A DNA stretch of 64,000 nt. Source: Acutalibacteraceae bacterium (GTDB taxonomy: Bacteria > Bacillota > Clostridia > Oscillospirales > Acutalibacteraceae). Positions 14,361 through 18,169 of this stretch are shown here, in pieces (positions within the stretch are counted from its first letter, which is position 1; each line of letters starts with the position of its first letter). The DNA lies in the NCBI GenBank assembly GCA_045534165.1, contig JAZSJD010000032.1, positions 2,942-66,941 of the forward strand. The letters are read 5' to 3'. Under the pieces are notes generated by a model. The model did no database searches and was not told the DNA's origin. It saw only the letters and a list, made by a program, of their open reading frames with translations. Both the position numbers and the translations under genes were made by a program.

Positions 14361-15902
14361 ATGAGCATACTGTTGAACTTCATTTATGATTTTTTAGGAC
14401 AGTTCTTTGTAAGCGGTTTTTGGGGAATACTTAAAGGTATCGGTCAAGGTATCATAAATATCTTCAATATACCCAAATACATAGAAATCTTCAAAAAATA
14501 TTCATCTAACTTTGGTGTAGGTGAATGGATTCTGGCAATTGTGTGTGTTCTTTTAATACTCATTGCTCTTGCAGCAATTGTATTTGTTGCATTGCTCCTT
14601 ATCAGAAAATACGTGAAAGTACGTAAAACACTTGTTGACCAGGAAGAGCTTCTCAATGAGGTTGGTAATCTTAATCGTGAAGTTATCAAACTTAATATGG
14701 AAAAGCAGAAAATCCTTGCTATGAAAGTTTCACAGCTCGGTCTCAGACCTGATGAAGATCCTTATGAGGATATAGAAGAGAAAAAAGAAGAGGAAGCAGA
14801 AGTGGACAAAACTGCTGAAGACTACAGCCGTTTCTACAAGCTTACTCAGGTTGACCTTGCAATGAAGGATTATGTTCAGCATGATTTCGATAACGATATC
14901 ACTCTTCCCGAATTCTGTGAACGTTTCCGTAACTTTGCTTGTAGCAGACTTGGTCTTTTTTATGAAATTGACACTCTTCGTCTTTTCATTTCCGGTTTTG
15001 CAGCAGCAAGACTTATCATCCTTCAGGGTATTTCCGGTACAGGTAAAACTTCACTTCCCTATGCTTTCGGTAAATTTGTTCAGAACGATGTAACTATCGC
15101 TTCTGTTCAGCCTTCATGGCGTGACCGTACTGAACTTTTCGGTTACTTCAACGAATTTACAAAGCGTTTCAACGAAACTGAAGTTCTTAAGAAAATGTAT
15201 GAAGCATGTTTCATGGAAGACGTTTCAGTTGTTATCCTGGACGAAATGAATATCGCTCGTGTTGAATACTACTTCGCTGAGCTCCTTTCAATCCTCGAAA
15301 TGCCATCTCGTGATGAATGGGTTGTTTCACTTGTTCCCACAGTGTGGCCTACTGACCCTGAACTCTTCTTCGATGGTAAATTCAGACTTCCTCCCAATAT
15401 GTGGTATGTCGGCACAATCAATAACGACGACTCTACTTTCGCTGTTACTGATAAGGTTTATGACCGTGCTATTCCCATTGATATCAATACAAAAGGTAAA
15501 TACTTTGAAGCACCTCTTACAGATCCTCTCTATCTCAACTACAAACATCTTGAAGCACTCTTTGATGAGGCTAAAGAAAAATATCCTGTTTCAGAAGATC
15601 CTCTCAAGAAGTTTGCTGAACTTGACGACTATGTTATCGAACACTTCCGTATAGCTTTCGGTAACCGTATTCTTAAACAACTTAAAGACTTTGTTCCTGT
15701 TTACGTTGGCTGTGGCGGTAAGGAAATCGACGGTATCGACTTCATCCTTGCTCACAAAATTCTTCGTAAATTCGAAAGCCTTAACGTTTCTTACATCCGT
15801 AACGAAATCGGCGGTCTTATTACTTACCTTAACAAAAACTTCGGTAAAAATAATATGAAGGATTCTAAGGATTACCTTGAAAGACTTCAGAAGCTTATGT
15901 AA
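14361..15902 (+). CDS. membrane-anchored McrB-like AAA+ (AAA_5) GTPase/ATPase
   Basis: Hydrophobic N-terminus including WILAIVCVLLILIALAAIVFVALLLI, then a coiled-coil segment. Walker A is LQGISGTGKTS. Walker B plus the following helix, VVILDEMNIARVEYYFAELLSILE, resembles McrB DEINRAN..FGE. GTINNDDSTFAVTDKVYDRA resembles the McrB MNTADRS..D.AL.RRF signature. GAGGTGA RBS before ATG 14361. Confidence 0.75.
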   Translation: MSILLNFIYDFLGQFFVSGFWGILKGIGQGIINIFNIPKYIEIFKKYSSNFGVGEWILAIVCVLLILIALAAIVFVALLLIRKYVKVRKTLVDQEELLNEVGNLNREVIKLNMEKQKILAMKVSQLGLRPDEDPYEDIEEKKEEEAEVDKTAEDYSRFYKLTQVDLAMKDYVQHDFDNDITLPEFCERFRNFACSRLGLFYEIDTLRLFISGFAAARLIILQGISGTGKTSLPYAFGKFVQNDVTIASVQPSWRDRTELFGYFNEFTKRFNETEVLKKMYEACFMEDVSVVILDEMNIARVEYYFAELLSILEMPSRDEWVVSLVPTVWPTDPELFFDGKFRLPPNMWYVGTINNDDSTFAVTDKVYDRAIPIDINTKGKYFEAPLTDPLYLNYKHLEALFDEAKEKYPVSEDPLKKFAELDDYVIEHFRIAFGNRILKQLKDFVPVYVGCGGKEIDGIDFILAHKILRKFESLNVSYIRNEIGGLITYLNKNFGKNNMKDSKDYLERLQKLM

Positions 15903-15955
15903 TTTATTAAGCTTCATAGCACAACTAATCTTCACACAAAAGGGGACGTTCTCAG

Positions 15956-18169
15956 ATGAGCGAATCATATCTTGATTTATACTCTGTCTATCAGGGCAAA
16001 ATGGCTGAAATGACAGCCGGAAATCCGTACTATGATTTTATGTACGAAGCGATTTCCACGGGACACAACAATTTCTCTCAATTTAATAGATTCTTTGAAA
16101 AGAAAATTGATATCCGTTGGGTTGAGGCTATCGAAAGGTGTATCATCCCGATTGACAATATTCTCAGAAATCCCCGTAAGTTCATTGTTCAGGAAGAAGA
16201 AGTTGTTATTATTGAACGCGCAAAAAAAATCACAACGGAATCAATAAGACATCTTGCTCAGCACACTAATATGATTTCCAAGGTAGAAGATGACGGTAGT
16301 GTTATGCCCAGCAAAATTCTGAATGTTTTCCGTGAAGAAAGTTATGAAATTTACGAAAACCGTTTTTTGTTCACTCTCATTAAACAGCTTGAATATTTTA
16401 TTAACGTCAGATATGAAGCTCTCGCAGATATGCCTGATGATGAAAACCTTAGTTCACTTAAAATGGAAAGCTCAGTAAAAAAAGGTAACGAGCTTATAAC
16501 CTTCAAAATGGAGGTTGCAACCAAATATACAAGCGATGAAGATGTAGATAGCAAAAAAGAAAAATCTGTTATGGACAGAATTCGCAGGATAAAGACTCTC
16601 GTTGATGACTTTGTTCATTCAAACTTTATGAGAGAAATGCGTAAGTGCGTTCCTGTTCGTCCACCCATTATGAGAACTAACGTTATCCTGAAGGACCCCA
16701 ACTTTAATCAGTGCCTTGGATTGTGGCAGTTTATTCATTCATATGATAACGTTGGTTACGAAATTAACCTTAAAGAATCAGATGATATGGTAAGCGATAG
16801 CTATCGTGACGACCTTTACGGTGTGCTTGCTTACAACTATATGCTTCTTAAAAAGAATACAGCTCCTGAAAGCAGCTTCAGAGGTAAACTCAGAAAGCGT
16901 AAGATCAAACCGAAGTTCATCAAACGTCTTGCAGAAGAGCTTGTTCTTAACTATGACCTGGACGAAGTTGAAATCAGAAAGGTTTTCATTGATGAAATGA
17001 AACTGGCTCATAAGAAGAAAACAGCCGGTGAACAGAAAATCAGAGAAGCAATTGATCGCGCATTGGCTCATGAGAACGAGCGTAAACGTCTTATCGAACA
17101 GAAAATCAAAGAAGAAATCGAAAGAAAAAAAGAAATCGAACGTCGCAGAATCGAAAGAGAAAAAGCGAGAATCGCTCGCGAGAAAGAACTGGAAAGGCAG
17201 CGTAAAGAAAGAGAAAGAGAAAGACTCAAAGCAAAGAAAGAAAAAGAAATTGCTTTGGAGAAAGCAAGACGTGCAAGGGAAAAAGAAAAACAGCGTCTTG
17301 CAAAACTCAGAGAACAGCAGGCAATTGCAGCAGCAAAAGAAAAGGAACGTCTTGCAAAACAGAAAGAAAGAGAACGCATTGCAAAAGAAAAAGCCTTGGA
17401 ATTGGAAAGGCAGCGTAAGGCAAGAGAGCTTGAAAGAAAACGTATCGCAAAAGAAAAAGCTCTTCAGCTTGAAAAAGAACGTAAAGCTAAGGAACTTGAG
17501 AAAAAGCGCATAGCAAAAGAAAAAGCAATCGCTCTTGAAAATGAACGCAAAGCTAAAGAAAAAGAAAAAGCAAGAATTGCCCGTGAAAAAGAAAAATTAG
17601 CTAAAGAGAAAGCAGAGCAGGAAGCTCGTGAAAAAGCAGCAAGAGAAAAAGAAAAAGCAAGATTAGCTAAAGAAAAAGCAGATCAGGAAGCAAAAGAAAA
17701 AGCTGCGAAAGCAAAAGAAAAGGCAAGATTAGCTAAGGAAAAGGCTGAACAGGAAGCAAAAGATAAAGCTGCACAGGCTAAAGCAAAACAGAAAGAAAAA
17801 GCAAGATTAGCTAAAGAAAAAGCAATTCAGGCAGAAAAAGAAAGAATTGCAAAGCTCAAAGAGAGAGAAAAAGAAAGATTAGCTAAAGCAAAAGAAAAAG
17901 CAATTCAGGCAGAAAAAGAAAGAGCTGCTAAAGAAAAGGAAAAAGTAAGATTGGCAGCAGAAAAAGCTAAACAGTTGGCAAAGGAAGCAGAGCAGAAAGC
18001 TAAGCAGAAGGAAAAAGAAAGAATGGCTAAAGCAAAAGCTGATGCCCTTGCCAAAGAGAAAGCAAGGCTTGCAAAAGAAAAAGAAAAGGCTAAATTAAAG
18101 GCTGCAAAAGAAAAGGAAAAAGCAAAAAATGCTAAAAAACCTGCACAGAAAACTGAAAGTGCAGTGTGA
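15956..18169 (+). CDS. DUF2357/McrC-N-terminal-like domain fused to a ~380-aa K/E/R/A-rich helical region; no nuclease domain
   Basis: The N-terminal ~340 aa carry IRWVEAIERCIIPIDNILRNPRKF and EESYEIYENRFLFTLIKQL, which resemble the ENRF(L/V)K block of DUF2357/McrC partners of McrB. From about aa 355 to the end the sequence is uninterrupted ERKR/AKEKA-type repeats. I could not find a PD-(D/E)xK motif. Confidence 0.6.
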   Translation: MSESYLDLYSVYQGKMAEMTAGNPYYDFMYEAISTGHNNFSQFNRFFEKKIDIRWVEAIERCIIPIDNILRNPRKFIVQEEEVVIIERAKKITTESIRHLAQHTNMISKVEDDGSVMPSKILNVFREESYEIYENRFLFTLIKQLEYFINVRYEALADMPDDENLSSLKMESSVKKGNELITFKMEVATKYTSDEDVDSKKEKSVMDRIRRIKTLVDDFVHSNFMREMRKCVPVRPPIMRTNVILKDPNFNQCLGLWQFIHSYDNVGYEINLKESDDMVSDSYRDDLYGVLAYNYMLLKKNTAPESSFRGKLRKRKIKPKFIKRLAEELVLNYDLDEVEIRKVFIDEMKLAHKKKTAGEQKIREAIDRALAHENERKRLIEQKIKEEIERKKEIERRRIEREKARIAREKELERQRKERERERLKAKKEKEIALEKARRAREKEKQRLAKLREQQAIAAAKEKERLAKQKERERIAKEKALELERQRKARELERKRIAKEKALQLEKERKAKELEKKRIAKEKAIALENERKAKEKEKARIAREKEKLAKEKAEQEAREKAAREKEKARLAKEKADQEAKEKAAKAKEKARLAKEKAEQEAKDKAAQAKAKQKEKARLAKEKAIQAEKERIAKLKEREKERLAKAKEKAIQAEKERAAKEKEKVRLAAEKAKQLAKEAEQKAKQKEKERMAKAKADALAKEKARLAKEKEKAKLKAAKEKEKAKNAKKPAQKTESAV
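17030..18166 (+). repeat. low-complexity coding repeats (ER/K-type helix)
   Basis: Imperfect tandem units such as KRIAKEKAL(Q/A)LE(K/N)ERKAKE(L/K)EK and KEKARLAKEKA(E/D)QEAKEKAA. At the DNA level there are repeated aaagaaaaagcaagattagctaaagaaaaagc strings. Confidence 0.75.

Follow-up and report, generated by a model that had tools for sequence, protein, structure and literature searches.

McrBC is the textbook GTP-driven restriction motor. Here we describe two adjacent genes related to it, found in a stretch of 64 000 nucleotides from Acutalibacteraceae bacterium (assembly GCA_045534165.1, contig JAZSJD010000032.1, positions 2942 to 66 941 of the forward strand), which we refer to as the window and in whose coordinates all positions are given. 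The first gene encodes protein A, by its motifs a membrane-anchored McrB-like AAA+ nucleoside triphosphatase (NTPase), and the second encodes protein B, a putative McrC-like partner that carries a long charged helical tail in place of a nuclease. The two genes lie in a conserved chromosomal operon together with genes for a cyclic di-GMP (c-di-GMP) phosphodiesterase, beta-sandwich proteins, intact SipW-type signal peptidases and a giant GLUG protein. With a probability of roughly 0.7, we read the pair as an NTPase module of McrBC descent, now in the service of a locus for SipW-dependent surface fibres and an adhesin, and not as a restriction or defence system.

This architecture already has a name. 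In their paper on the CoCoNuT systems, Bell, Sahakyan, Makarova, Wolf and Koonin (eLife 2024, PMC11090510) call it CoCoPALM and devote one paragraph to it, which offers no mechanism and defers analysis to a later publication. The features given there are an NxD signature, shorter than usual, after which E or a second D commonly stands; a GTPase fused to an FtsB-like transmembrane (TM) and coiled-coil domain; an adjacent McrC homologue, usually fused to a coiled coil; and an association with the signal-peptidase family, with mention of 'pilus assembly'. The same paper equates DUF2357 with the N-terminal domain of McrC. Our full-text literature searches found no follow-up or experimental work on CoCoPALM.

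Judged by sequence, the window pair is a member of this class. It shares with CoCoPALM the NxD-branch McrB-like NTPase with a TM helix and a heptad-like stalk at its N-terminus, the adjacent DUF2357 McrC homologue with a long helical extension, and the genes of the signal-peptidase family, four of which (all SipW-type) occur in the window locus. It departs from the published outline in that the tail of B lacks heptad periodicity and the FtsB/FtsL likeness of A stays below threshold. The CoCoPALM paragraph does not contain the EAL protein, the four intact SipW peptidases, the subunit families or the giant GLUG protein that we find here. A preliminary description of this DNA, made from the letters alone, alluded to CoCoNuTs and treated the nuclease-less, membrane-anchored form as novel; only there was it wrong, as the CoCoNuT paper already names this clade. 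What we add is a confirmed membership and locus-level detail, the class itself having been known since 2024. A specialist familiar with that paper would expect such a system, which is widespread and strongly conserved.

Compared with McrBC of E. coli and Thermococcus (6hz4, 6ut6, 7vsr), protein A retains the AAA+ core with its motifs in register, and the gene order, NTPase then partner, is the same. The differences are four: a TM helix stands where McrB has its N-terminal DNA-binding domain, the signature reads NxD[D/E] rather than NxxD, protein B has neither a PD-(D/E)xK nuclease nor detectable similarity to E. coli McrC, and the genomic context is a fibre operon instead of a restriction-modification island. 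With the CoCoNuT proteins CnuB and CnuC the pair has in common the NxD branch, the long helical extensions and McrC homologues that often lack an active nuclease. However, CoCoNuTs are soluble and always accompanied by HEPN or other nucleases (PMC11090510), whereas A is membrane-anchored and the window locus encodes no nuclease.

The NTPase and its partner

Our calls of open reading frames (ORFs) returned both genes exactly where, and as, the preliminary description had placed them. The start ATG of A is preceded by GAGGTG, and a GTG at 14352 falls within that ribosome-binding site. The sole significant PDB sequence matches of A are McrB chains (6ut6, 7vsr and 6hz4, E ~5e-5), and the NCBIfam McrB equivalog PRK11331 gives a weak match (E 5e-5). 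Comparison of the A family profile with E. coli K-12 McrB in hhalign reached a probability of 96.9% (E 1.3e-10, 177 columns). Homologues of A number more than 8000 when counted as clusters at 90% identity, and the best 120 of them are at least 70% identical.

For the A family we used an alignment (A1), from which invariant columns were read, and a set of 150 library representatives at the 50% identity level. Both Walker motifs, A and B, are invariant in A1, as is the signature block NNDDST (residues 354–359), which includes N354, N355, D356 and D357. An ungapped pairwise alignment to the NTAD of E. coli is by itself ambiguous between NxD and NxxD, and the comparison of the 150 representatives decides: nearly all have N-x-D-[D/E]-S-T, in which position 2 varies, position 3 is D and position 4 is D or E. 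The NxD[D/E] signature of CoCoPALM is thus present in A, and these motifs place it in the NxD[D/E] branch of the McrB-type AAA+ NTPases. The McrB-type Walker and signature blocks had been picked out in the preliminary description too, and the homology searches bear this out.

Residues 1–150 of A consist of a hydrophobic segment, a TM helix, a stalk and an acidic linker. The N-terminus begins with a moderately hydrophobic stretch (residues 1–37), followed by the TM helix (residues 56–82), a basic cluster (RKYVKVRK) and a stalk of ~40 residues (~88–130) whose spacing reads as heptad-like. No DNA-binding family was detected in the N-terminus by Pfam or NCBIfam, in agreement with the earlier view that a TM helix and a coiled coil replace the DNA-binding domain. 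By the positive-inside rule, and given that an NTPase draws its NTP from the cytosol, the AAA+ domain would lie on the cytoplasmic face of the membrane. Across the family a TM segment precedes Walker A in 94 of the 150 representatives, with Walker A itself starting anywhere from residue 112 to residue 546.

About one-third of the 150 representatives (P0361–P0510) have no TM segment; these carry N-terminal extensions of ~400–500 residues and the same NxD[D/E]ST motif. Some relatives of A at 36–45% identity have N-terminal extensions of 300–500 residues. The TM-less relatives are probably soluble, CoCoNuT-like proteins.

Protein B is preceded by a good ribosome-binding site (AAGGGG). At full length it matched no family in the Pfam, NCBIfam and PADLOC scans, probably because the composition of its tail is biased. 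Residues 1–385 were searched apart from the tail, and 35 homologues were searched as well (alignment A2 for invariant columns). Searched in this way, B matches Pfam DUF2357 (PF09823) with an E-value of 1.7e-10 and 41 bits, against a gathering score of 23.3, and 28 of the 35 homologues match the same family. The ENRF block and DUF2357-like N-terminal domain announced by the preliminary description are thereby borne out by a match above the gathering score. The assignment of B as a likely McrC homologue rests on this match, on the gene order and on its McrB-type partner.

An AlphaFold2 model of B residues 1–385, built from a 35-sequence alignment, has a mean predicted local distance difference test score (pLDDT) of 80 and a predicted template modelling score (pTM) of 0.53. 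It comprises a mixed alpha/beta N-terminal domain that includes a long beta hairpin (residues 163–192), and helices of which the last (residues 337–384) runs into the tail. Past residue 198 the model holds helices, one short strand (residues 268–277) and then the long helix; a four-stranded core of the PD-(D/E)xK kind is absent from it. A cryptic nuclease or effector fold in B had been raised as something to check, and neither Pfam, NCBIfam, PADLOC, a PDB sequence search nor Foldseek found a nuclease or other effector in the protein.

The tail begins at residue 346, is 59% charged and 20% Ala, contains one Pro and one Gly, and carries +59 net charge; part of its coding sequence is repeated in tandem, at periods of 66 and 78 bp. 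Its heptad signal is z = −0.5, compared with ~40 in a Ruminococcus-type homologue, so that in this member the tail is, by composition and periodicity, a helix rich in Ala and charged residues that differs from a classical coiled coil. An uninterrupted K/E/R/A helix where a nuclease would be expected is what had been described earlier, and every other structural claim made then about the pair (the NTPase, its TM and coiled-coil N-terminus, the DUF2357 partner) has likewise held.

Among homologues of B the tail differs by clade. B proteins of Bacilli-type loci are tailless (~370–395 residues), and those of Acutalibacteraceae type have strongly basic, EKRDAQ-rich tails with charges of +48 to +80. 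Ruminococcus-type B proteins (for example L046:11628-14189, L068:11575-14484 and L078:11514-14039) possess a coiled coil with canonical heptads and, after it, a globular domain of ~140–260 residues without a Pfam family; one of these domains resembles DegV over part of its length (E 5.6e-7). The idea that the homologues hide an effector in their tails was also considered and discarded, no nuclease being found among the Ruminococcus-type C-terminal domains. The globular domain may be a real output or partner-binding domain that is missing from the window B.

The N-terminus of A and the tail of B also bear on another reading, in which the pair serves cell division or envelope integrity apart from any fibre, with an FtsB/FtsL-like A and a TolA-like B. 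Residues 58–143 of A give weak matches to the FtsL family (Pfam FtsL_2, E 0.043; NCBIfam FtsL, E 0.07–0.1), the N-terminus of A proteins is called FtsB-like by Bell et al. (PMC11090510), and one homologue of B (P0112) is annotated as TolA by its source. All of the FtsL matches, however, fall below threshold, and the name TolA comes from the abundance of K, A and E in the tail. Moreover, the basic cluster after the TM helix would put the coiled coil in the cytoplasm, opposite to the topology of FtsB and FtsL. This reading would also leave the strict linkage to SipW loci, set out below, unexplained, and we regard it as the least probable of those considered here.

Conservation and genomic linkage

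Our sample of related loci comprises 89 loci, from 80 species-level genomes plus metagenome contigs, in which ORFs were called and searched with the window proteins; for some of them independent gene tables were made as well. A SipW-type peptidase is present in the flank of all 89. Protein B follows A directly in 86, the remaining three being contig ends, and the families of two putative subunit proteins encoded upstream of the pair, p11198 and p12209, occur in 76 and 75 loci, respectively. In 67 of the 89 a SipW gene ends no more than 400 nt upstream of A. Most loci also contain an ORF that reaches 800 codons or more. The preliminary description had offered a role in fibre or adhesin biogenesis as the first of two readings and had proposed testing co-occurrence with SipW genes against defence islands; the linkage to SipW throughout the sample, together with the recurrence of B and of both subunit families, supports that role.

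An EAL homologue lies in the flank of 42 of the 89 loci. Two others encode proteins with an HD_5 (HD-GYP-type) domain (L005:4232-5620 and L008:6348-6662), of which one is an HD_5+EAL protein and the other HD_5 alone. Taken together, the EAL and HD_5 genes suggest second-messenger control of the fibre operon.

Protein A is the best conserved product of the locus, with a median identity to the window protein of 60%, compared with 39.5% for the N-terminal domain of B, 32% for SipW1 (the peptidase encoded directly upstream of A) and 29% for p12209. With one genome searched per species, relatives of A were found in at least 583 species-level genomes, mostly metagenome-assembled genomes (MAGs) from gut and rumen. 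Among the matches listed, the carriers named are Bacillota (Acutalibacteraceae, Oscillospiraceae, Ruminococcus, Lachnospiraceae, and MAGs labelled 'Bacilli', Mycoplasmatota or Erysipelotrichaceae), except for two MAGs labelled Bacteroidales/Bacteroidaceae; the closest locus among them is in an Acutalibacteraceae MAG, at 92% identity. Metabolic genes flank the locus in the window, and its upstream order of GFO_IDH_MocA and EAL genes is seen again in another locus, where A is 74% identical. Among the 2.9 million viral contigs of IMG/VR, one relative of A was found, at 29% identity.

These data speak to the second of the two readings given in the preliminary description, that of a decayed or novel defence module inserted here. 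In its fullest form the pair would be a nuclease-less anti-phage or abortive-infection module derived from McrBC or CoCoNuT, which would either be a mere passenger of the locus or protect the fibre, a possible phage receptor. The McrBC ancestry of the pair fits this, the best PADLOC match of A is a candidate defence protein (PDC-M26A, E 1.5e-35), and the TM-less relatives of A at 36–45% identity may be of CoCoNuT type. Yet neither B nor the locus encodes a nuclease or effector, the synteny with SipW and subunit genes is invariant across the 89 loci, and A is more conserved than any neighbour, the opposite of what an arms race would lead one to expect. We therefore reject the defence-module reading, which we hold to be very improbable, because of the conservation of A, the SipW synteny, the stable and metabolic chromosomal flanks and the near-absence of the family from viral contigs. 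Nor was any of the three observations made that the preliminary description had listed against its own view: B does link to DUF2357, no nuclease turned up, and the loci sit with SipW genes and not mostly in defence islands away from them.

Elsewhere in the window, outside 10291–41336, PADLOC models mad3 (E 1e-32), mad8, mad2, pVip, PDC-M51A and AriA match one protein each. At least some of these matches are probably to generic domains, the window containing two radical SAM proteins and an ABC ATPase.

Genes around the pair

We took the locus to extend over ~10291–41336 of the window; its features are collected in Table 1. Pfam and NCBIfam detected no nuclease in any ORF of at least 150 codons across this interval.

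Table 1. Features of protein A, protein B and the surrounding locus (window coordinates)
Feature	Position	Strand	Basis or remarks
EAL-domain protein, c-di-GMP phosphodiesterase family, at the locus head	10291..11175	+	Pfam EAL E 1.4e-44
Signal-anchored protein p11198, 293 aa	11198..12079	+	N-terminal hydrophobic segment; distantly related to p12209
Putative major fibre subunit p12209	12209..13039	+	signal-anchor helix, T-x-A-W-F motif, all-beta sandwich
Terminator-like hairpin	13153..13182	+	12-pair stem, 8 G-C; directly 3' of p12209, ahead of SipW1
SipW-type (archaeal/ER-type) signal peptidase I, paralogue 1 (SipW1)	13328..14290	+	TIGR02228 E 8.8e-23; SipW model E 4.6e-22
Protein A, membrane-anchored McrB-like AAA+ NTPase (McrB homologue of CoCoPALM)	14361..15902	+	513 aa; McrB homology
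TM helix of A, residues 56-82	14526..14606	+	Kyte-Doolittle 19-mer mean up to 3.49
Walker A GISGTGKTS, residues 223-231	15027..15053	+	invariant in A1; aligns to GPPGVGKT of E. coli McrB
Walker B DEMN, residues 294-297	15240..15251	+	invariant in A1; aligns to DEIN of McrB
McrB signature NNDD, residues 354-357, NxD[D/E] variant	15420..15431	+	invariant in A1
Protein B, putative nuclease-less McrC-like partner (DUF2357 + charged helical tail)	15956..18169	+	737 aa
DUF2357 match, residues 66-163, with Y133-E134-N135-(R136)-F137	16151..16444	+	PF09823; invariant columns in A2
K/E/A/R-rich helical tail of B, 392 aa	16991..18166	+	composition; imperfect 66-bp (22-aa) repeats in part
Giant secreted protein, 5604 aa, presumed adhesin or cargo	18353..35167	+	Sec-type signal peptide, Peptidase_M26_N, GLUG
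Small signal-anchored protein, 211 aa, no known family	35254..35889	+	
SipW-type signal peptidase, paralogue 2	35889..36464	+	SipW model E 1.4e-35; TIGR02228 E 6.4e-33
SipW-type signal peptidase, paralogue 3	36418..36939	+	TIGR02228 E 1.8e-30
Signal-peptide protein, 261 aa, T/E-rich linker, candidate minor subunit	36936..37721	+	no family
SipW-type signal peptidase, paralogue 4	37718..38245	+	Peptidase_S26 E 3.5e-10; TIGR02228 E 2e-19
Signal-anchored protein, 273 aa, weak TapA-like N-terminus	38175..38996	+	TIGR04087 TapA E 0.011-0.018, below cut-off
Signal-anchored protein, 207 aa	39014..39637	+	TIGR04090 BsaA-family SipW-dependent matrix protein E 0.0013, below cut-off
Membrane protein p39693, 547 aa	39693..41336	+	K-rich N-terminus, acidic ETVE repeats, TM helix, ecto-domain; no family

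The EAL gene at the head of the locus is preceded by a strong promoter-like site (10272–10300, 11/12 match with TG). Next come the two putative subunit genes. The product of the first, p11198, has no Pfam or NCBIfam family. For p12209, AlphaFold2 predicts a helix (residues 9–34) followed by beta strands (pLDDT 83, pTM 0.78), and the family has invariant T33, A35, W36 and F37 at the end of the signal anchor. Its match to TIGR04088, the SipW-dependent-type signal peptide, is borderline (E 0.0018, 18.4 bits, cut-off 19). A Foldseek search with the model gave no significant PDB match; the weak top matches include chaperone-usher pilins, and TasA was outside the top 50. Neither Pfam nor NCBIfam found a member of the TasA/camelysin (Peptidase_M73) family among the subunit candidates. 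The strong hairpin after p12209 would fit an abundantly expressed major subunit, and it may act as an attenuator through which far more subunit than machinery is made. No terminator-like site was found on the forward strand between SipW1, A and B.

Upstream of A the preliminary description had recognized a signal peptidase gene, and downstream of B a giant secreted-protein gene; these proved to be SipW1 and the 5604-residue protein. SipW1 has a C-terminal TM helix, an acidic tail of ~90 residues and an ecto-domain insertion of ~50 residues. The giant protein, whose gene is preceded by a promoter-like site (18262–18290), matches Pfam Peptidase_M26_N (E 4.3e-10) and Glug and contains many GGIVG/GLUG-type repeats; no LPXTG motif or C-terminal TM anchor is visible in its translation. 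Further downstream, three more SipW paralogues are interleaved with four small signal-anchored proteins. All four SipW paralogues score above the TIGR02228 cut-off, keep the catalytic Ser, His and Asp (Ser58, His100 and Asp119 are invariant, as is Asp125), and are 26–33% identical to one another; their number and divergence hint at a dedicated peptidase for each substrate. The last gene of the interval encodes p39693, for which no homologue was found in the flanks of the other loci and whose membership in the system is uncertain.

Similar acidic low-complexity repeats, on what is presumed to be the cytoplasmic side, occur in the tail of SipW1 (14020–14290, EAEKTVEAE) and in p39693 (ETVETVEETAEPE after the K-rich N-terminus). 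Electrostatic pairing of an acidic SipW1 tail with a basic B tail was considered as a family-wide feature and set aside: over 67 loci the tail lengths showed a weak correlation (Spearman rho 0.26, p 0.036, not corrected for phylogeny) and the charges none (rho 0.15). In these loci B tails have charges anywhere between −45 and +80; because of this range, DNA binding by a basic B tail would not be a conserved property.

The closest known operons of this kind are tapA-sipW-tasA of B. subtilis and sipW-bsaA of C. perfringens, in which archaeal/ER-type peptidases likewise stand beside secreted beta-rich proteins. A signal end of T-x-A-x-F type is also common to both, and the window locus gives a borderline TIGR04088 match and weak TapA and BsaA matches. 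In contrast, the subunits of the window locus are not detectably TasA/Peptidase_M73, and it has four peptidases and a 5604-residue protein. Neither of the two described operons is known to contain an NTPase.

Possible role of the pair

By analogy with McrBC, protein A would form an NTP-dependent hexameric ring under the membrane, held there by six TM helices and their stalks, and the DUF2357 domain of B would insert into this ring and stimulate hydrolysis. The McrBC structures behind the analogy are reportedly those of Nirwan 2019 and Niu 2020 (6hz4, 6ut6). The tail of B, up to ~55 nm long if it is one continuous helix, would replace the nuclease as output or tether. We postulate that the A ring uses NTP hydrolysis for a step of fibre biogenesis that takes place at the membrane. 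What this step could be is the least certain part: the ring may gate or drive the way in which subunits with signal anchors are presented to the neighbouring SipW and then passed on to the fibre as it grows, or to the giant adhesin. The fibre, in turn, would carry or anchor the giant GLUG protein.

In such a scheme A and B would be the counterpart of the cytoplasmic ATPase in the logic of type IV pili. The likeness to type IV pili and archaella is one of logic only, comprising a dedicated peptidase, helix-anchored subunits and a cytoplasmic hexameric NTPase (here a hexamer by analogy), and there is no homology: the McrB AAA+ domain is not PilB or FlaI, SipW is not PilD or FlaK, and a PilC-like platform is absent.

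Several points weigh against a fibre-biogenesis module of this kind. First, the function proposed for the pair is drawn from gene association. Second, TasA-type fibres in Bacillus are not known to require an NTPase for assembly, and a need for energy is therefore not obvious. Third, PDC-M26A, the closest scored defence-library model to A, is a defence candidate. Fourth, the SipW-type signal peptide of the putative subunit is borderline in TIGR04088, and Foldseek and PDB profile searches gave nothing significant for a TasA-like identity of the subunits, which we accordingly dropped. Lastly, attempts to show by structure or by direct profile comparison that B is McrC-like failed, and the Pfam DUF2357 match alone holds. 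Foldseek returned nothing significant for the B model (McrC chains 6hz4_M at E 0.083 and 6ut6_G at E 0.43, the latter over 91 columns with a root-mean-square deviation of 4.7 Å), hhalign gave the B family profile a probability of 0.1% against E. coli McrC, and the B profile matched low-complexity helices and no McrC among PDB sequences.

The pair may alternatively be a regulatory switch or checkpoint and not a motor, with ring assembly and B-stimulated hydrolysis acting as a timer or sensor that licenses cleavage by SipW, localises the machinery or signals to gene expression; the subunits would then undergo no mechanical work. A c-di-GMP phosphodiesterase gene heads about half of the loci, which suggests tight regulation, and SipW lies directly upstream of A in the 67 loci counted above. 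B tails are very diverse in their length, charge and type, and such variation fits an adaptor or tether better than a force transmitter. Fibres of the donor-strand type are not known to need energy, and SipW of B. subtilis has a second, regulatory role through its C-terminus. However, conservation of the AAA+ core is extreme and extends to every catalytic motif, which argues for real, repeated cycles of hydrolysis, and no DNA-binding or signalling output domain was found in A or B by Pfam, NCBIfam or PADLOC. We consider a switch unlikely on balance, although it and a motor are not separable with the present data.

Returning to an NTPase module at the service of the fibre locus, a wider proposal can be put forward tentatively, at rather less than even odds. 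CoCoPALM may be the cytoplasmic engine of an unrecognised NTP-dependent pathway for fibres or giant adhesins in Gram-positive gut anaerobes, in which the clade-specific tail of the McrC homologue (absent, a charged single helix, or a coiled coil with a C-terminal domain) would serve as a tether, ruler or partner-docking arm. If this is true, it would be a first: the motor of a restriction enzyme, with its McrB ring and McrC plug, co-opted to work on protein subunits anchored in the membrane and no longer on DNA. The locus belongs to a large and strongly conserved branch of McrBC that has lost DNA binding and cleavage and is tied to signal peptidases, fibre subunits and giant adhesins. Should the pair power or gate fibre assembly, it would stand for a class of machinery, new among the surface organelles of Gram-positive bacteria, in microbiota members that are abundant and mostly uncultured, and it would show cleanly how a machine of defence can be exapted for biogenesis of the cell surface.

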